A DNA stretch of 64,000 nt. Origin: Escherichia phage vB_EcoP_PhAPEC7. The notes beneath the pieces were generated by a model that did no database searches, was not told where the DNA came from, and saw only the letters and a program-made list of their open reading frames with translations. Location of the stretch: sequence record NC_024790.1. One strand, given 5' to 3'. A program made the position numbers and the translations under genes. Shown here one piece after another: positions 1,492 through 27,840 of the stretch. Each line of letters starts with the position of its first letter. Within the stretch, counting starts at the first letter, position 1.

Positions 1492-2544
1492 ATGGCGAGC
1501 ATTGACTCCTTGACTGTATGTAATACACGCCAAGCCCGTAATTTTATTATCCGTGCCCTGCAAGCAGGTAACGTACCGTTCCTGACTTCATCACCAGGCA
1601 TGGGTAAATCTGCAATTATCCGTTCTGTTGCAGAAGAATTTGGCATGAAGCTGATTGACCATCGTCTGTCTACTTCTGCCCCGGAAGACCTGTCTGGTCT
1701 ACCATTCCGTAATGGTGACCGTGCAGAATTTATCCCATTCGCTGACTTATTCCCTATCGAGGGAGATGAAGTACCGGAAGGTTATAATGGCTGGCTCCTG
1801 TTCCTTGATGAGTTCAACTCAGCTAAGAAAGAAGTAGTAGCTGCAGCATACAAACTGATTTTAGACCGCATGACTGGACAGAAGAAACTTCACCCTAATG
1901 TGATGATTATCTGTGCCGGTAACAAAGCTACTGACCGTGCTATCGTTAACCCACTGGGTACTGCAATGCAGTCTCGTGTTGTCCACTTCGAAATGGAACT
2001 TAACTTCGACATCTTTGTTGAAGACGTAATGATTCCGCAGGAATGGGATGAACGTCTGGTTGCATTCTTACATGCTAACCCTGGCTATCTGCATGACTTC
2101 GATCCTGCCCACAAGAACAAAACGTTCTGTTGTCCTCGTACCTGGGACTTTGTTAACAAAGACCTCAAGAATCGACCAGAAGGTGCTCTGCCTGATGAAG
2201 ATTCCCTATACTACAGTGGATTTGTTACACCAGGTAAGGCTGTAGAGTTTGTTCAGTTCACTCAGGTATACAATCGTATGATTACGATTGAGAAGGTAGT
2301 CAAAGACCCGCTGGGCTGTGCACTGCCTGAAGATAATAACCTGTGCTGGGCTACCGTTAACCATCTGGCTAACAAGACTACTGAAGATAACTTCGCTGAT
2401 GTACTTCAGTATATTGAACGCTTTAAAACGTTCACTCATAAGATTCTGTACTTCCGTACAGTAGGCAGAGCATTACCAGAAATTCAGGCTACCCCTGAAT
2501 GGCGTAAGGCTGCTGCCAATATCTCTCGTTACATTCACGGATAA
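1492..2544 (+). CDS. AAA+ ATPase (MoxR-like)
   Basis: Walker A SPGMGKSA and Walker B LLFLDEFN; strong RBS AGGAG upstream; followed by a VWA protein, the usual MoxR/VWA pairing. Confidence 0.6.
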   Translation: MASIDSLTVCNTRQARNFIIRALQAGNVPFLTSSPGMGKSAIIRSVAEEFGMKLIDHRLSTSAPEDLSGLPFRNGDRAEFIPFADLFPIEGDEVPEGYNGWLLFLDEFNSAKKEVVAAAYKLILDRMTGQKKLHPNVMIICAGNKATDRAIVNPLGTAMQSRVVHFEMELNFDIFVEDVMIPQEWDERLVAFLHANPGYLHDFDPAHKNKTFCCPRTWDFVNKDLKNRPEGALPDEDSLYYSGFVTPGKAVEFVQFTQVYNRMITIEKVVKDPLGCALPEDNNLCWATVNHLANKTTEDNFADVLQYIERFKTFTHKILYFRTVGRALPEIQATPEWRKAAANISRYIHG

Positions 2545-2551
2545 TCACAAC

Positions 2552-3727
2552 ATGAACCAGATACCTCAGCACACACTTAGTGATGAACAACTCATGCGTG
2601 AGTATGACCGTATTCAGGCGCAGGCATTCCTTGGACGTAGTGCAGCGTTTTTTGGTTCATTGCTGTGTAGTCTTAAGTTCTCATGGAAACGCGAGGACTG
2701 CCCTACTGCATGTACTGACGGGATAGAACTCCATTTCAATCCAGACTTCTTTATCTGGATGTGCCCTGATGCGAGAGAAACAGTGCTAATGCACGAACTC
2801 TGGCATGTGGCATATCTACATGGCATCCGCTGTGGAAGCCGTGACCCGGAAATCTGGAACCAGGCATGTGACCACTTCATTAACCTTCAGTTAGAGGAAG
2901 ATGGATACAAGTTCACTGGTATCGACAAAGGCATTTGCAAAGACCCTCAATATAAAGGTTGGGTCGAAGAAGACATCTACGATGACCTGATGAAGAACCC
3001 TCAGAAAAGGCAGAAGCCGTCAGGGGGTGCTGGAGCAGGTCTTGCTGGCGACATGAAAGCTCCCTCTTCGGGGCAGTCCCAGGGTGCTGTTGTCAACAAC
3101 GTAGTACGTGCAATGCAAAGCCAGAAGATGGCTGGTGGAATGATGCCCGGTAAAGGTGCTGGTCGTATGGAAGAGGTAATTACCCAATTCCTTAAGCCAG
3201 TGGTTCCATGGCAGGAAGTCCTGCTGAACTTCTTTACCGACATTGATGACTCACACTATACGTGGGCCAGACCTAACCGTCGTTTTACTGACATCTATCT
3301 ACCATCTCTGGAAGATGATGAAGGACGCTTACGACACTTAGCTTACTTTGAAGATGTATCTGGTTCCATTAGTAGTGCTGACTCTCTACGTTTTAACTCA
3401 GAGGTTGCCTACGTTAAGAGCCAGTTCAATCCTAAGAAGATGACCCTTATTACCTTCGACGATATTATCCAAGAAGAAATAGACATCACTGAAGAAGATA
3501 CTTTTGAAGAAATTAAGATTACTGGTCGTGGTGGTACAAACCTTGAACCAGTGCGTGAATGGATTATTAAGAATAAGCCAACCGCTGCAATCATATTCTC
3601 CGATATGTATGTTCGTCCAATGGAAGAATTACCATTTGATATCCCTATCATCTGGTGTGTTCTGAATAATCCCAATGCTACCGTACCTTTTGGGGAGGTA
3701 GTTCATATCCCTAAAGGAATGAAATAA
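2552..3727 (+). CDS. VWA domain protein with N-terminal HExxH metallopeptidase-like motif
   Basis: HELWH motif near the N-terminus; MIDAS-like DVSGS motif in the C-terminal half; adjacent to the AAA ATPase. Confidence 0.55.
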   Translation: MNQIPQHTLSDEQLMREYDRIQAQAFLGRSAAFFGSLLCSLKFSWKREDCPTACTDGIELHFNPDFFIWMCPDARETVLMHELWHVAYLHGIRCGSRDPEIWNQACDHFINLQLEEDGYKFTGIDKGICKDPQYKGWVEEDIYDDLMKNPQKRQKPSGGAGAGLAGDMKAPSSGQSQGAVVNNVVRAMQSQKMAGGMMPGKGAGRMEEVITQFLKPVVPWQEVLLNFFTDIDDSHYTWARPNRRFTDIYLPSLEDDEGRLRHLAYFEDVSGSISSADSLRFNSEVAYVKSQFNPKKMTLITFDDIIQEEIDITEEDTFEEIKITGRGGTNLEPVREWIIKNKPTAAIIFSDMYVRPMEELPFDIPIIWCVLNNPNATVPFGEVVHIPKGMK

Positions 3728-15058: not shown

Positions 15059-16729
15059 ATGCGTTACATCACCTCTCAGGATACTGGTAAGTATCCTATT
15101 GCTATCCTCGGTCATCAAATCCGAAGGGAGGAGATGATTAAAACCTACCTGCTGCCTTATGACCTAAGCATGGAAGATTTCATCTTCCTTGAACTTCATT
15201 CTGCCCCCGGCAAGAAGAAAACTCCTGCAAGGGAGATTAAGGAGTTCATTCAGCAGGAACTGCAACAAGTACTGGATGATGCAGAGACTCAGTACATTAT
15301 CTGTACCGATTCTGATTACTTTAAAATACTGACTAAAGAAGCTAAAGCAGAGGCTAACCTCGGCTATGTTTGTGACTCAGTATGGGGTAAGCAGAAGGTT
15401 ATCTATACACCTAGCTACAGACAGGTCTTTTATGATCCACCTGTAGTGAAAGCTAAGATTGCTCAGGGTATGGATGCATTACTTAACCACATTCGTGGGC
15501 AGTATGCTGAACCAGGACAGGGAATCATTGAGTTTGAAGCCTATCCGGATACACCAGAAAAGATTAAAGCCTGGCTAGACCAGTTGCTTGAGATGAATAA
15601 GCCTCTGGCTATAGACATCGAATCATTCGGTTTAAAGCACTATAACGCTGGTATAGGGACGATTACGTTCTGTTGGAGTAAGACACAAGGTATAGCCTTT
15701 AATGTGGACTACGAGCCAATTAAGGGGGCTACTGAAGCACCCTATGGGCGTATCAACAGGAATGATGTTGTTCGTAACCTGTTACGTGAGTTCTTCATTA
15801 AGTACACTCAACGGCAGATGTATCACAACATTAGCTATGACGTGTACGTGCTTATCTATCAGTTATTCATGGATAACCTGATTGATACGGAAGGCTTACT
15901 GCACGGCATGGAAATCATGCTACGTAATTGGGACTGTACTAAGTTAATTACCTATCTGGCTACTAACAGCTGTGCCGGTAATCACCTTAGTCTGAAAGAA
16001 CAGGCTCAGGAATATGCTGGTAACTATGCTCAGGATGACATTAAAGACATTCGTCTTATTCCTAATGAGCAACTGTTACGCTACAACCTCATTGATGGTT
16101 TGTGTACGTGGTACACCTACGAGAAGCACTGGGATACTCTCATTGCTGATGACCAATTAGATGTTTACAACAATATCTTTAAACCAGCCTGTGAAGACAT
16201 TATTCAGATGCAGTTAACCGGTATGCCCATGAATATGGAAACCGTTAACCAAGTAGCTGAGGAGATGGAAACTGACAGGAACCAGGCTCTGAAAACTATT
16301 CGTGAGTCTAAGCTCATGAAGAACTTCACCCTGATGCTTCGTCAGGAATGGGTAGACGATAAGAATGCTAAGCTAAAGAAGAAGCAAGTAACACTGGCTG
16401 ATTGTGACATAGTGTTTAATCCTAATTCAGGGCCACAATTACAGAAACTGTTATTTGATTACATTGGCTTACCGGTTCTTGGTCTTACTAAGAGCAAGCA
16501 ACCTGCTACTGACGGAGACACTATTAAAGCACTGCGTACACATACGCAGAGTGAAGATGTTAAGGAACTGCTCAATGCACTTATCGACTATAAACTCGTG
16601 GATAAGATTATCACTAGTTTTATACCAGCTTTCAGGAATGCCCAGCCGGGGCCGGATGGCTGGCACTACCTATTCGGCAACCTCAATCTTGGAGGCACAG
16701 TCTCCGGTAGGCTATCGGCTTCAGAGCCT
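15059..16729 (+). CDS. DNA polymerase I (family A), exon 1 with 3-5 exonuclease domain
   Basis: Exo I LAIDIESFG and Exo II YHNISYDVYVL motifs; ends inside the conserved GRLSASEP|NLQTIP motif. The computed ORF runs on into intron sequence to a stop at 16750. Confidence 0.85.
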
Positions 16730-17435
16730 AAAATAAATTGGGCTATTTAAACCATGTGAATTCAGGGGAAACCCAGACCGGGCAATCCTGAGCCAAATCA
16801 ACCATACCTGCCTTAGGAGGCACATGATGGATATCAAGAATCTGTACGAGAATACTGACCTATCTCAAGCAGAAATATCAAAGCGTTTGGGTATTAATTA
16901 CAAAAAAGTCTCTAAATATATTAGGGAGAACTACAGTAAAGAATACCGCCAAAGCAGAAATGCAAAGTCTTACCGACGCTCCAAGCTGGGGAAAAATAAC
17001 CCCATGCTCGGTAAATTCGGCAAAGACCATCACAACTACAAAGGTTTAGTATCCGATAGTAAGGGCTACTTAATGGTACTTAAACCCGATTGGTATACTG
17101 CACGCAAAGGTAGCAAACATGTTTTTGCTCACCATGTAGTGGTATGTGAGGCACTTAATATCAGTGAAATACCTAAGGGCTGGTGTGTGCACCATTGTGA
17201 TGAAAATCCATACAACAACGACTTTGATAATCTTGTATTGCTAAGTGTTCCTGACCACGCTCGGTTACACTCAGCATTGAAAGGTGCAACGACTATCTCG
17301 AAAGAGAGTACACTCATGTGGGTGGAAGCGCATGGCACGCCTTACTATCTGGCGTGATGATATAGTCTGCTCTGCATAGGAATATGCAGCAGTCGAAAGA
17401 CGGGCATGGATTAACGACCCATGCTGAACAACAGG
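16730..17435 (+). mobile_element. Group I intron in the DNA polymerase gene, carrying an HNH homing endonuclease gene
   Basis: 5-prime exon ends in U (..GAGCCU); internal guide GGGCU can pair with it. P/Q-like core elements (TGAATTCAGGGGAAACCC, GGGCAATCCTGAGCC) at 16755-16795, R-like AAGGTGCAACGACTATC at about 17281 and S-like GATATAGTC at about 17359. Intron ends in G at 17435; joining the exons restores GRLSASEP-NLQTIPSGSKY in frame. Confidence 0.75.
16824..17357 (+). CDS. HNH homing endonuclease (intron-encoded)
   Basis: Own RBS AGGAGG; HNH motif HHVVVCEALNISEIPKGWCVHHCDENPYNNDFDNLVLLSVPDHARLH; N-terminal HTH-like segment. The 3-prime coding end overlaps the intron R-like element. Confidence 0.75.
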   Translation: MMDIKNLYENTDLSQAEISKRLGINYKKVSKYIRENYSKEYRQSRNAKSYRRSKLGKNNPMLGKFGKDHHNYKGLVSDSKGYLMVLKPDWYTARKGSKHVFAHHVVVCEALNISEIPKGWCVHHCDENPYNNDFDNLVLLSVPDHARLHSALKGATTISKESTLMWVEAHGTPYYLA

Positions 17436-18344
17436 AATCTACAAACAATTCCATCCGGTTCTAAATATGCCAAGAAGATTAAGAAATGCTTCGAAGCCCC
17501 ACCTGGCTGGGTATTTTGCGGTTTGGACTTCGCCTCGCTGGAAGACAGAATATCTGCATTGACTACTAAAGACCCCCAGAAACTTAAGGTATATACCGAT
17601 GGTTACGATGGTCATAGTCTTCGTGCGTATGCTTACTTTGGTGAGCAGATGCCAGACATTGTAGACACAGTTGAGTCAATTAATTCTATTCAGACGAAGT
17701 ATAAGCACCTGCGTAGTGATTCTAAAGCCCCAACCTTCTTGCTTACCTATGGTGGTACGTATATGGGCTTGATGAAAAACTGTGGCTTCTCAGAAGAGAA
17801 AGCTAAAACAACAGAGAAACGTTATCACGATCTCTATGTAGTTAGTGATATGTGGGTTCAGGCTAAGCTAGATGAAGCTGCCAAGACTGGTTATGTAACT
17901 GCTGCATTTGGTTTGAGAGTGCGTACTCCTTTACTGGCTCAGGTATTACGTGGGACATGTAAGACTCCATATGAAGCAGAAGCTGAAGGTAGAACTGCTG
18001 GCAATGCTTTAGGGCAAAGCTGGTGTCTATTGAATAACCGTGCTGGTTCAGAGTTTATGCGTAAAGTCAGAGCCAGTGAGTTCAGGTTAGATATACGCCC
18101 TAGTATTCACATTCATGATGCTCAATACTTCATGATTCGTGACAACATGGATACCTTGCAGTACACGAACAAGCATTTGGTTGAAGCCGTTAACTGGCAA
18201 GACCATCCTGATATTGCTCATCCAGAAGTTGGTTTGGGTGGGGAACTATCCTTGTTTTACCCAACGTGGGCTAACGAGATTGAGATTCCAAATCACGCTA
18301 CCCCAGAAGAAGTTAATCAAATAATTCAAAAGGCATTCGCATGA
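17436..18344 (+). CDS. DNA polymerase I (family A), exon 2 with polymerase motifs A, B and C
   Basis: Motif A DFASLEDR, motif B KAPTFLLTYGGTYMG, motif C HIHDA. The computed ORF 17421..18344 starts a few codons upstream in intron sequence. Confidence 0.85.
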   Translation, partial: NLQTIPSGSKYAKKIKKCFEAPPGWVFCGLDFASLEDRISALTTKDPQKLKVYTDGYDGHSLRAYAYFGEQMPDIVDTVESINSIQTKYKHLRSDSKAPTFLLTYGGTYMGLMKNCGFSEEKAKTTEKRYHDLYVVSDMWVQAKLDEAAKTGYVTAAFGLRVRTPLLAQVLRGTCKTPYEAEAEGRTAGNALGQSWCLLNNRAGSEFMRKVRASEFRLDIRPSIHIHDAQYFMIRDNMDTLQYTNKHLVEAVNWQDHPDIAHPEVGLGGELSLFYPTWANEIEIPNHATPEEVNQIIQKAFA

Positions 18345-18646
18345 CTAAAAGTACTAAAGAAACCGCCGTCAAAAAATATCATTGGATGGTGGCAGCACAG
18401 GTAATCTTCCAGCTTCCTAAAGCTGATGATGGTTCCCTGCTTACCATGAATACAATGCTGCTCACTGACGAACCTCATGTGACTTATAAAGATTTGGCCC
18501 GTGTTAATCACTCTCTGAAGATTAGTCTGGACCAGCGTTTCGACACCTCAGTTGACTTGAAAGACATTGTTTATCTATCCATCAATAACCTGGGTCTGAT
18601 GTCTGAACCAGAGTTCCAAGCAAACATGATTCCCAAGGGGGAATAA
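18341..18646 (+). CDS. Hypothetical protein
   Basis: 101-aa ORF overlapping the polymerase stop. Confidence 0.3.
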   Translation: MTKSTKETAVKKYHWMVAAQVIFQLPKADDGSLLTMNTMLLTDEPHVTYKDLARVNHSLKISLDQRFDTSVDLKDIVYLSINNLGLMSEPEFQANMIPKGE

Positions 18647-22299: not shown

Positions 22300-22632
22300 A
22301 TGTCCGAAGAAATCTCCAACGATATGAACACTCAGCTAATCCTGATTGCAGGATTCTCAGCTAGTGGTAAATCAGCATCACTGCGTAATATCCGGAACCA
22401 GGAACGCTGGCTGTATCTGAATACAGAAGCGGGTAAACGTCTACCTTTCCGTAATAAGTTCAACACCTACAATATCGAAGACCCATACCAGATTTGGGAA
22501 GCATTCGATGTTGCATCTCCTGGTGGTGAAATGGCAGACGATGTTGATGGCATCATTATCGACTCTGCTACCTTCATGATGGACATGCTGGAATCCCAGT
22601 ATGTATTACCATCTGCTAATACCCAAAAGGCT
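22300..22632 (+). CDS. RecA-like (AAA_24/Sak4-type) ATPase, exon 1
   Basis: Walker A GFSASGKSAS. Exon is exactly 111 codons and ends in U (..AAGGCU), which can pair with an internal guide GGCC 10 nt into the intron. Confidence 0.55.
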
Positions 22633-23404
22633 TAACTACTAAGGCCCGTTAGTCAGTAATGATTAATGATAACTGATTGAATTCAGGGAAACCCCTAACG
22701 TAAAGACGAGGGCAATCCTGAGCCAAGACTTAATCTTTCTCCGGTTTTTATTAACGGAGTTACAAACATGAGTAAGAAAAGATTCGGTAATGAATTACAT
22801 CCTCTGTATTACACATGGTTAACCATTAAACAGAGATGTGACAACCCTAAGCACGCTAGTTATAAAAACTATGGGGCTAGGGGGATAACTAGAGCAGAAG
22901 AGTTCTCTGACTTCAAAGTGTTTGCTGCCTATCTAGAATCATTAGATGGTTACGCAGACAGGGAGAGACTGGGTCTTACTTTAGATAGAATAGGTGGTTC
23001 ACTTGGCTATGTGCCAGGAAATCTGAGATAGGCAACTAGAACAACTCAGACCATTAATTCCAGAAAAAGAAGAACCAGTAAAGCTACCTACTTAGGGATA
23101 GGTTTAAACACCACTAAGAAAAAATGGTCAGCAAGAATCTGCAACGGTAATGAAAGAATCTTTGTAGGTAATTTTGATTCCGAGATTGAAGCTCTGAAAG
23201 CTAGAAATGCCTACATTATTGAGCATGGTTTACCTCATGCCATTCAAAAGATTAAGTAAGGTGCAACGACTATCCAGTAATGGAGTAGGGCAGAAGCTAA
23301 TGCTGCTCGAAGCGGTCAGCATCCTATCGTAATTAACGAGGATGAAGATATAGTCTGGACTGCATGGAAACATGCAGATGCAGGTAATGCTGCTGGGAGT
23401 GTAG
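22633..23404 (+). mobile_element. Group I intron in the ATPase gene, carrying a degenerate homing endonuclease gene
   Basis: Shares core elements with the polymerase intron: TTGAATTCAGGGAAACCC and GGGCAATCCTGAGCCAA (22676-22728), AAGGTGCAACGACTATC (about 23259-23277), GATATAGTCTGG plus a CTGCATGG..ATGCAG hairpin (about 23348-23380). Ends in G at 23404 just before exon 2. Boundaries inferred by analogy, plus or minus a few nt. Confidence 0.65.
22768..23258 (+). pseudogene. Homing endonuclease with AP2-like DNA-binding domain, interrupted by an in-frame TAG
   Basis: RBS GGAG then ATG at 22768. N-terminal half YYTWLTIKQRCDNPKHASYKNYGARGI...LDRIGGSLGYVPGNLR. TAG at 23029-23031 falls where related endonucleases have Trp. 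Frame then continues through an AP2-like segment (YLGIGLNTTKKKWSARICNGNERIFVGNFDSEIEALKARNAYIIEHG) to TAA at 23256-23258. Confidence 0.5.
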
Positions 23405-23848
23405 TTGCGTACACTCTTGAACGTATCGTGGGGAGACTTTGCACAGTTCTTTAAAGTACTGCTGCAACAGAAAGTCGTTAAGTTTGGTAAGCCGGTAATC
23501 ATTACTGCCCATGCCAAAGATGAACTCGACGAAGCTGCTGGTGTAATGAAAACATTCATCCCGGTCAAGGGTTCACTGAAGAACAATGGCCTTGAGGCTT
23601 ACTTTTCTACAGTGGTTTACGCAGAACGTGTAGACATTAAAGAACTGGAGAAGTACGGCAACAAGATGCTTGATATTACGGAAGAAGAACGTGACTTAGG
23701 CTATAAGCACGTATTCCAGACACGTCCAACCAAGAAGTCTGTTGGTAAACGTCTTCGCTCACCAATGGGTATGTTCGATAAGTCTCAGACTTACATTGAT
23801 AATGATGCCCAAAAACTCTTAGACCATCTGGCTGAATACTACGCTTAA
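23405..23848 (+). CDS. RecA-like (AAA_24/Sak4-type) ATPase, exon 2
   Basis: Frame is open immediately after the intron terminal G; preceded in frame by TAG at 23402-23404, so it cannot extend upstream. Spliced product would be about 259 aa. Confidence 0.5.
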   Translation: MRTLLNVSWGDFAQFFKVLLQQKVVKFGKPVIITAHAKDELDEAAGVMKTFIPVKGSLKNNGLEAYFSTVVYAERVDIKELEKYGNKMLDITEEERDLGYKHVFQTRPTKKSVGKRLRSPMGMFDKSQTYIDNDAQKLLDHLAEYYA

Positions 23849-27113: not shown

Positions 27114-27307
27114 CCTGAAGTCGCCAGGTACTTATGGCAAACGGGTAGTAACGAACTAGTCATTCGTCAAACGCCCACCCAATTATGAGTCAGCAAGAAC
27201 GCCTTCACTTAAACTTAAACAAAAAAGCTTAACGCAATGATTATGTAGGGGTATGTAAGGATTGCGAAGAAGGAGCCAGTTAGAGCCTGGCATGACTCAC
27301 CTATTAT

Positions 27308-27381
27308 GTCCGCTTAGCTTAGACTGGGAAAGCAACCGACTAATAATCGGAAGGTCACTGGTTCAAATCCAGTAGTGGACA
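27308..27381 (+). tRNA. tRNA, anticodon AAT (formally Ile); 74 nt, CCA not encoded
   Basis: Manual cloverleaf: acceptor GTCCGCT/AGTGGAC (one G-U), U8, D-stem GCTT/AAGC with G18G19, anticodon stem CCGA/TCGG with loop CTAATAA (U33, A37), T-stem ACTGG/CCAGT with loop TTCAAAT, discriminator A. Confidence 0.6.
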
Positions 27382-27840
27382 CCCATTCAGCAGTAACATA
27401 GTCCTGATTGCATAGCACTCTAAAGACAACACTGGTAAGACAGTCCAGTGGCTGCTAATGTATTGTTATTCCCCTCGACGGGAATTTCGCTGGAGAATAG
27501 GAACTACTTAAATCCTAGCCTGAGTATTGCAATATGTGACTATCAATCACGAGAGACGGGACGACCAGACCCCTGAAGCTGGCAATATTGCATATTCATA
27601 CAAGCCTCCCAGCTATGGGTAAATAGTACTAAGTCCCTCAGAGCCGTCACTCTGGGGGACTTTTTTATTTGAGCATTAATAATTGGATAATCAATATGAT
27701 TGATCTAATCTTAACCCCGTATGCCTATGAGGTAACGGATAACCGAGGATGTAAGTCTTTGGTATTTGCAGGTAGCGTAGCCTATAACAACGCAGTTATG
27801 TTTAAGTACAAACTCAAACCACTCTATGAGGCTAATAATG

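Follow-up and report, generated by a model that had tools for sequence, protein, structure and literature searches.

A probable mobile IA2 group I intron carrying an HNH endonuclease gene in the family A DNA polymerase gene of an N4-like coliphage

Related introns in phage polymerase genes

The group I intron of phage Pf-WMP3, which lies between Pro363 and Asn364 of the DNA polymerase at the position corresponding to site 674 of E. coli Pol I, self-splices both in vivo and in vitro (PMC3428280). Its endonuclease, I-PfoP3I, is a Mg2+-dependent site-specific nickase; cleavage takes place on the coding strand, 4 nt upstream of the insertion site, and depends on 14 bp located downstream of the cut (PMC3428280). 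The same paper places the introns of SPO1, SP82 and Bastille at site 674 as well, that of phiL7 at site 676 and those of PhiI and W31 at site 881 (PMC3428280). In the N4-like phage Pollock, an intron-encoded HNH endonuclease has been described in the polymerase (PMC4319500). Like the one reported here, the introns of phiL7, PhiI/W31 and SPO1/SP82/Bastille belong to group I, carry HNH genes and interrupt family A polymerase genes. The SPO1-type endonucleases constitute the I-HmuI family. The T4 td intron belongs to subgroup IA2 and has its ORF looped out of P6a, as in the present intron, and its 3′ end (GAUAUAGUCUGCUCUGCAU..., with AUUAACGAC as the loop of P9.2) is very similar; it differs in its host gene (thymidylate synthase), in encoding the GIY-YIG enzyme I-TevI instead of an HNH protein, and in possessing P2.

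The window analysed in this study (the whole stretch of 64,000 nt) contains an element of this kind at positions 16730-17435 of the plus strand. The intron is already annotated in a public genome, that of vB_EcoP_PhAPEC5 (KF192075), as 'PartI of DNAP split by an intron of 672bp' and 'Part II of DNAP', together with a 'putative HNH endonuclease inducing intron mobility'; the figure of 672 bp measures the distance separating the two CDSs and does not correspond to the intron length. PhAPEC5 and Shigella phage Moonfish carry the same element at the same site as the window, but their records are silent on splice sites, fold and subgroup, and a literature search on PhAPEC5 together with intron found nothing. 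The window phage is not PhAPEC5, because the latter lacks the second intron of the window, which lies in a Sak4-like gene; the polymerase exons of the two phages also differ by ~2%. Experimental characterisation exists for the family itself (IA2, HNH ORF in P6a, polymerase site 674). Biologically, the present case is one further example of a well-understood phenomenon. New here are the exact splice sites, the covariation-supported IA2 fold and the overlap between the ribozyme core and the endonuclease frame.

We consider it very probable that 16730-17435 is a mobile, self-splicing IA2 group I intron with an HNH gene, residing in an essential family A polymerase gene. It shares with the Pf-WMP3 intron the homologous Pro/Asn codons, the IA2 subgroup, the absence of P2, the P7.1-GUA-P7.2 arrangement, and an ORF that runs from P6a through P6, P7, P7.1 and P7.2 with the HNH motif in its C-terminal half. 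At their ends, both I-PfoP3I and the window HNH protein carry ...ATTISKES, which is P7/P7.1 read as protein. Differences are also present. The Pf-WMP3 intron has no P9.1 or P9.2, and an in-frame UAA stands at its start; its ORF, of 161 aa, ends sooner than that of the window, which continues through P3′ and P8; it comes from a different phage family with a different host bacterium, and its splicing and nicking were demonstrated by experiment (PMC3428280), those of the window intron being predictions.

The interrupted polymerase gene and the ribozyme

The host phage is an N4-like coliphage of the genus Gamaleyavirus (Schitoviridae). In a megablast search with 15059-18344, PhAPEC5 matched at 98.4% over the full length and Moonfish matched the polymerase region at 93.2%, while dozens of other Gamaleyaviruses (G7C, IME11, pSb-1 etc.) gave two-piece matches to 77-79% of the query. 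An upstream polymerase ORF (15059-16750) ends in GRLSASEP-KINWAI-stop, and a downstream one (17421-18344) includes NLQTIPSG; both match Pfam DNA_pol_A, at profile positions 11-128 and 124-303, respectively. In G7C, gp39 is a single uninterrupted polymerase gene of 2580 nt. The alignment with such an intron-less polymerase had been suggested by the first-pass annotation, which read the frame as breaking after GRLSASEP and resuming 706 nt later, and it bears out both the break and its coordinates. G7C is colinear with the window up to ...TCAGAGCC(A/T) and then again from AATCTACAAACA, its target around the insertion site reading ...TCAGAGCCAAATCTACAAACAATTCC..., and the intervening 706 nt (exactly 16730-17435) are absent from it. 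The edges of the insert carry a 2-nt AA ambiguity, which was settled as 16730-17435 by the group I rules of U at -1 and G as the last intron base.

Exon 1 (15059-16729, plus strand), a homologue of N4 gp39 delineated by its ORF, Pfam DNA_pol_A and the G7C alignment, ends with the codon CCU (Pro) and the base U16729. Exon 2 (17436-18344, plus strand), supported by the same three lines, begins with AAU CUA CAA (N L Q). Joining the two in silico gives 2580 nt, or 860 codons with one terminal stop, and a product colinear with G7C gp39 that is identical at 854 of 860 residues with 0 gaps. The DNA_pol_A domain becomes continuous after removal of the insert. The junction, GRLSASEP|NLQTIPSG, aligns with TGRLSSSDPNLQNIP of Taq Pol I, and Klenow and Bst polymerases can also be aligned across it, so the expected restoration of the family A motif holds. 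In annotation, the polymerase should appear as a single CDS, joined from 15059..16729 and 17436..18344, instead of as two genes, with the intron and its HNH gene listed as a separate mobile element.

The assignment of the 706-nt insert to group I, subgroup IA2, draws on its absence in G7C, a sub-threshold match to Rfam RF00028, homologous introns that pass the gathering score, and covariation. P1 (16725-16744), supported by sequence and covariation, is formed by exon AGCCU (16725-29) and the intron guide GGGCU (16740-44); at the 5′ splice site, U16729 forms a wobble pair with G16740, and this U.G is invariant in 19/19 relatives. The terminal base of the intron is G17435. The U at the end of the exon, the guide GGGCU that can pair with the exon and the terminal G, all proposed in the first-pass annotation as group I hallmarks, were thus found. 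AUU at 16737-39 could in addition pair with AAU of exon 2 (17436-38) as P10.

The 5′ strand of P3 (CCAUGUG, 16752-16758) pairs with CGCAUGG at 17329-17335. The region 16762-16801 comprises P4 (16762-67/16786-91), P5 (16772-74/16780-82) and the 5′ strands of P6 (GCC, 16792-94) and P6a (UCAA, 16798-801); the 3′ strands of P6a (UUGA, 17277-80) and P6 (GGU, 17283-85) and the 5′ strand of P7 (GACUA, 17291-95, a match to the classical R element) lie in 17277-17295. Between P7 and P3′ (17296-17324) there are two hairpins, P7.1 (UCUC-GAAA-GAGA, 17296-307) and P7.2 (CACUC-AUGU-GGGUG, 17311-24), joined by GUA (17308-10). The 3′ strand of P3 (17329-35), the P8 hairpin (17336-56) and J8/7 follow within 17329-17367, the 3′ strand of P7 (UAGUC, 17363-67) being part of the conserved GAUAUAGUC (S element). 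These assignments rest on the RF00028 match and pair counts, and those of P9 (17372-89), P9.1 (17392-401) and P9.2 (17403-25) in 17372-17435 on pair counts and the minimum free energy (MFE) fold. The 3′ tail of the intron is GAACAACAGG, ending in G17435. The intron has no P2. All helix coordinates in the window were confirmed by script.

For comparative support, 19 introns were aligned structurally after the ORF interior was cut out, with hairpins anchored on conserved flanks and variable loops N-padded; this was used instead of plain MAFFT on the ORF-deleted introns, which misaligned P1, P8 and P9.1. MAFFT left the resulting 313 columns unchanged. With P1, P3, P4, P5, P6, P6a, P7, P7.1, P7.2, P8, P9, P9.1 and P9.2 modelled, standard pairs occupy 96.9% of 1285 cells and compensatory (both-side) changes occur in 42/68 pairs, in an alignment that was hand-anchored on the proposed hairpins and so favours the structure. 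None of 500 shuffles was as good on any of five measures, and sliding the 3′ partners by 1-3 columns as a control reduced pairing to 30-41%. Compensatory changes are seen in P1, P3, P6a, P7.1, P7.2, P8, P9.1 and P9.2, whereas P7 and most of P4 are uninformative because they are invariant. In P1, 95.6% of cells are paired and 5/6 pairs are compensatory, the guide co-varying with differing exons; P3 reaches 99.2% with 4/7 pairs compensatory, and is also present in the MFE fold of an ORF-deleted construct. That fold (z = -2.9) recovers P3, P4, P5, P6, P6a, P7.1, P7.2, P8, P9 and P9.2. The core of P3-P8 helices with a P3/P7 pseudoknot therefore has comparative support, with P7 itself invariant and the alignment hand-anchored. 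Weak points are the short helices P1 (5 bp) and P5 (3 bp). As for the subgroup, IA2 introns are defined by extra P7.1 and P7.2 hairpins, G-U-A linked, between P7 and P3′ (PMC3428280); here both hairpins and the GUA are present and both hairpins covary (P7.1, 97.4% of cells paired and 3/4 pairs compensatory; P7.2, 100% and 5/5).

The gathering score of RF00028 is 50 bits. A permissive scan gives 38.0 bits at 17136-17389 (E 5e-8), covering the P7/J8-7/P9 part of the model, and 17.7 bits at 16762-16847 for the P4-P6 part (model positions 60-140); the E value is 4e-6 when the whole window is scanned against all families. At the gathering threshold, Rfam reported a tRNA alone in the whole window. 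The RF00028 check suggested in the first-pass annotation was accordingly failed at the gathering score (38 vs 50 bits), as is normal for ORF-containing members of this family. The shortfall arises because the 530-nt ORF splits the model. ORF-carrying relatives fall below the gathering score too (APK32, 37.7 bits; Moonfish, 33.0; Pf-WMP3, 31.9; phiL7, 31.7), whereas three ORF-less ones exceed it (84.7, 69.7 and 61.9 bits), and the APK32 intron with its 37.7 bits has an ORF-less twin, KEN_02, at 84.7. Since the ORF-carrying relatives score alike and the ORF-less twin does not, 38 bits is the expected outcome rather than a contrary one. The Rfam gathering score routinely misses ORF-carrying members of this intron family, the experimentally proven Pf-WMP3 intron among them.

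In a blastn search with the insert, 454 phage records hold a similar insert, the best at E 1e-74; together with the RF00028 E values (5e-8 locally, 4e-6 for the whole window), this excludes a chance match. At each of the 22 relative loci retrieved (22/22), the insert splits an essential replication or transcription gene. Related inserts are found in the polymerase genes of Autographiviridae on Acinetobacter, Pseudomonas, Providencia, Dickeya, Pectobacterium and Klebsiella, in those of Xanthomonas phage phiL7, the Schitovirus Shigella phage B2, the T7-like Vi06 and a Pakpunavirus, in the RNA polymerase gene of Draal03, and in primase/helicase genes of VL73 and JSF38. Across quite dissimilar phages, the intron lineage thus occupies genes for polymerase, RNA polymerase and primase/helicase. 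The introns of Draal03, VL73, JSF38, Vi06 and the Pakpunavirus share this IA2 ribozyme lineage but carry different endonuclease ORFs, one of them annotated as endonuclease VII, and in each of the five the guide of P1 has been adjusted to the exon next to it. In Vi06 and the Pakpunavirus, the lineage sits at the motif B site of the polymerases. ORF-less versions of 239-279 nt occur at the same polymerase sites in KEN_02, Valrath and MK21, and KEN_02, as the ORF-less twin of APK32, fits a cycle of gain and loss of homing endonuclease genes.

Within family A polymerase genes, the lineage uses two neighbouring sites: after Pro in the window, Moonfish, Shigella phage B2, the Acinetobacter phages, RCIP0039 and PPWS1, and after Asn-Leu in phiB1_1, PS3, BF25/12, phiL7 and Valrath. 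The phiL7 ribozyme aligns with that of the window throughout, but its intron, judged from the sequence, follows PNL (PNL|Q, site 676), two codons further downstream; the window intron, lying after Pro two codons upstream of the phiL7 site, is therefore at site 674. The PhiI/W31 introns are at site 881, in the motif B region where the Vi06 intron lies. The insertion site of the window is a published hot spot for polymerase introns.

We propose that in the pre-mRNA the exon sequence AGCCU would pair with the guide GGGCU as P1 while the core P3-P9 folds; an external guanosine would then attack after U16729, and the freed 3′-OH of exon 1 would attack after the terminal G17435. Ligation of ...GAG CCU to AAU CUA... 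would yield a full-length polymerase with the SEP-NLQ finger motif. That the host gene is essential and its ORF exactly restored suggests that the window intron would indeed undergo guanosine-dependent self-splicing.

The endonuclease gene and probable mobility

The HNH ORF (16827-17357, plus strand) encodes a protein of 176 aa from ATG 16827, or 177 aa from ATG 16824, and was recognised by Pfam HNH_3, phrog_7545 and identity to I-PfoP3I. It begins in the P6a loop, reads through P6a′, P6′, P7, P7.1, P7.2, P3′ and P8, and stops at UGA 17355-57 on the P8/J8-7 border. Since the ORF runs on through P6 to P8, its last ~25 codons are at the same time ribozyme core. HNH_3 (PF13392) matches residues 104-147 with 30.8 bits against a cut-off of 24.8, while an N-terminal helix-turn-helix-like region falls slightly under the Pfam cut-off; phrog_7545 ('HNH endonuclease') matches at E 1e-57. 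By tblastn, 40 phage records hold relatives at coverage of at least 80%, and those inspected are all ORFs of polymerase-gene introns. The protein is 45% identical to I-PfoP3I (E 3e-44, pairwise) and 58% identical to phiL7 gp45; a PDB sequence search with it gave no significant match, and I-HmuI was not detected.

The ORF had been taken for a free-standing HNH gene with its own ribosome-binding site, and the HNH_3 match and a Shine-Dalgarno sequence (AGGAGG, 16815-20) 6 nt ahead of ATG 16827 agree with this. Half of AGGAGG is buried in a local hairpin, UGCCU-UAGG-AGGCA (16809-22), and a possible outer stem between CCAU (16802-05) and AUGG (16827-30) would cover the start codon. This element (16802-16830, plus strand) was assessed by RNAfold in 10 relatives; its stem shows compensatory changes (UACCU/AGGUA, CGCCU/AGGCG and CACCU/AGGUG), and the Shine-Dalgarno sequence is paired also in introns with unrelated ORFs. 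In the T4 td intron, a hairpin over the I-TevI ribosome-binding site represses translation of the intron ORF. By analogy, the conserved hairpin of the present family probably restrains translation of the endonuclease, such that ribosomes would spare the folding of the ribozyme.

Between the window and Moonfish, codons of the HNH ORF differ synonymously in 21 cases and non-synonymously in 6 (pN/pS 0.07), a ratio that indicates, at the level of sequence, purifying selection. The ribozyme has 0 substitutions in its 5′ part and 3 in its 3′ part, all at unpaired positions. Given this ratio and the confinement of the ribozyme substitutions, selection seems to act on both the protein and the RNA. In the window phage as well as in PhAPEC5 and Moonfish, the ORF is intact, and the evidence, which is indirect, favours an endonuclease that would still be active. 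By analogy to I-PfoP3I, it would probably nick intron-less polymerase alleles of co-infecting relatives near the site, and recombinational repair would copy the intron together with flanking exon sequence into the nicked allele (homing).

The distribution of the intron and its identity to relatives bear on this. Among ~110 matching records, PhAPEC5 and Moonfish are the sole Gamaleyavirus carriers, so that the distribution is sporadic; over all 706 nt the intron is 99.9% identical to that of PhAPEC5 and 96.0% identical to that of Moonfish. Relative to PhAPEC5, the intron has 1 mismatch over its 706 nt and the exons have 51 over their 2580 nt (Fisher p = 1e-4), and in fact the whole of 16691-18429 holds a single mismatch (16924), with flanks on both sides 2-3% divergent. 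This near-identical block of 1.7 kb comprises 40 nt of exon 1, the intron and ~1 kb of exon 2. It fits recent homing with co-conversion; ordinary mosaic recombination may also have produced it. From -40 to +65 of the site, the intron-bearing allele differs from that of G7C solely in the -1 base, CCU vs CCA. U at -1 was considered as a mark of intron-bearing alleles and rejected, because the intron-less ST4 also has CCT.

The window holds a second intron of the IA2 type (group I, recognised by RF00028 in a permissive scan), 796 nt long at 22633-23428 on the plus strand, which splits a gene for a Sak4-like/N4 gp44-like AAA ATPase into exons 22300-22632 and 23429-23848. RF00028 scores it at 49.5 bits over 23150-23377, with a further 30.9 bits over 22623-22892. 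An in-frame UAA opens the intron, which also has U at -1 and a terminal G; once spliced, the gene encodes a protein colinear with G7C gp44. The intron occurs in SP5M, Bas96 and PW8 but not in PhAPEC5 or G7C. Relative to phage Bas96, its endonuclease ORF (22768-23259) carries a TGG to TAG nonsense mutation at 23029-31 that leaves a stub of 87 aa.

The best-surviving alternative to the mobile intron is one that splices and yet is immobile, its HNH protein being inactive, unexpressed, or serving as a maturase or a weapon against competitors, with vertical descent as the only route of inheritance. The burial of the Shine-Dalgarno sequence would agree with this, and the nonsense-mutated endonuclease gene of the second intron demonstrates that such decay occurs in this genome. 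Nevertheless, we regard it as unlikely in view of the intact ORF in all three phages with its low pN/pS, an HNH_3 domain above the Pfam cut-off, the sporadic occurrence within the genus, and a near-identical block centred on the intron between divergent flanks, as expected after recent homing and co-conversion. The 45% identity to I-PfoP3I, purifying selection, patchy distribution and identity tract together lend indirect support to an HNH protein that would cleave site-specifically and promote homing of the window intron. A bolder proposal, which is possible but in our opinion doubtful, is that the intron is now an active weapon or drive among co-infecting Gamaleyaviruses: the HNH enzyme would nick G7C-type alleles, and the 1.7-kb block would be the scar of recent homing in which exon 2 was co-converted asymmetrically. 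If so, mosaicism in the polymerase gene would be shaped by the element, which may also confer an advantage in competition. An intron endonuclease of PhiPA3 is reported to provide such an advantage (PMC11620839).

Other readings of the insert and further elements

Could the polymerase instead be a gene in pieces, in which a non-splicing homing-endonuclease cassette separates the coding regions of two polypeptides that together form the active enzyme? GenBank records do list two polymerase CDSs, and in SP5M and ST4 HNH inserts with no detectable ribozyme lie elsewhere in the gene. In the window, however, the ORF is surrounded by a complete group I core that covaries, the break falls inside the invariant finger motif, and U at -1 with the terminal G gives a seamless join. 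Furthermore, exon 2 has no Shine-Dalgarno sequence and its sole upstream ATG (17421) is inside P9.2, and the homologous Pf-WMP3 intron splices; we therefore judge this alternative very improbable. An intein or a group II intron stands next to no chance. Polymerase genes commonly host inteins, but the exon-1 frame runs into a stop at 16748-50, after 7 codons of the insert, and this excludes an intein. The HNH ORF possesses a start and a Shine-Dalgarno sequence of its own, its ribosome-binding site having been the argument of the first-pass annotation for an intron, and neither a Hint or intein domain nor a reverse transcriptase nor a group II Rfam match (E<=10) was found.

The inserts of SP5M and ST4 are different from that of the window. 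The former is 702 nt long (locus 2330-3031) with an ORF composed of NUMOD4 and HNH_3, the latter, also with an HNH ORF, is 843 nt long (locus 2240-3082), and they lie at other conserved polymerase motifs, KVY|TDGYDGH and EAPP|GWIFCGLDF. Scanning both for ribozymes gave no RF00028 match at E<=1, and the flanking polymerase fragments carry short extra peptides. These inserts may represent genes in pieces or unrecognised introns.

The window also contains a single tRNA gene at 27307-27385 on the plus strand, identified by ARAGORN as tRNA-Ile with the anticodon AAT and scoring 62.4 bits with the Rfam tRNA model. An Ile anticodon with A34 is unusual for bacteria.
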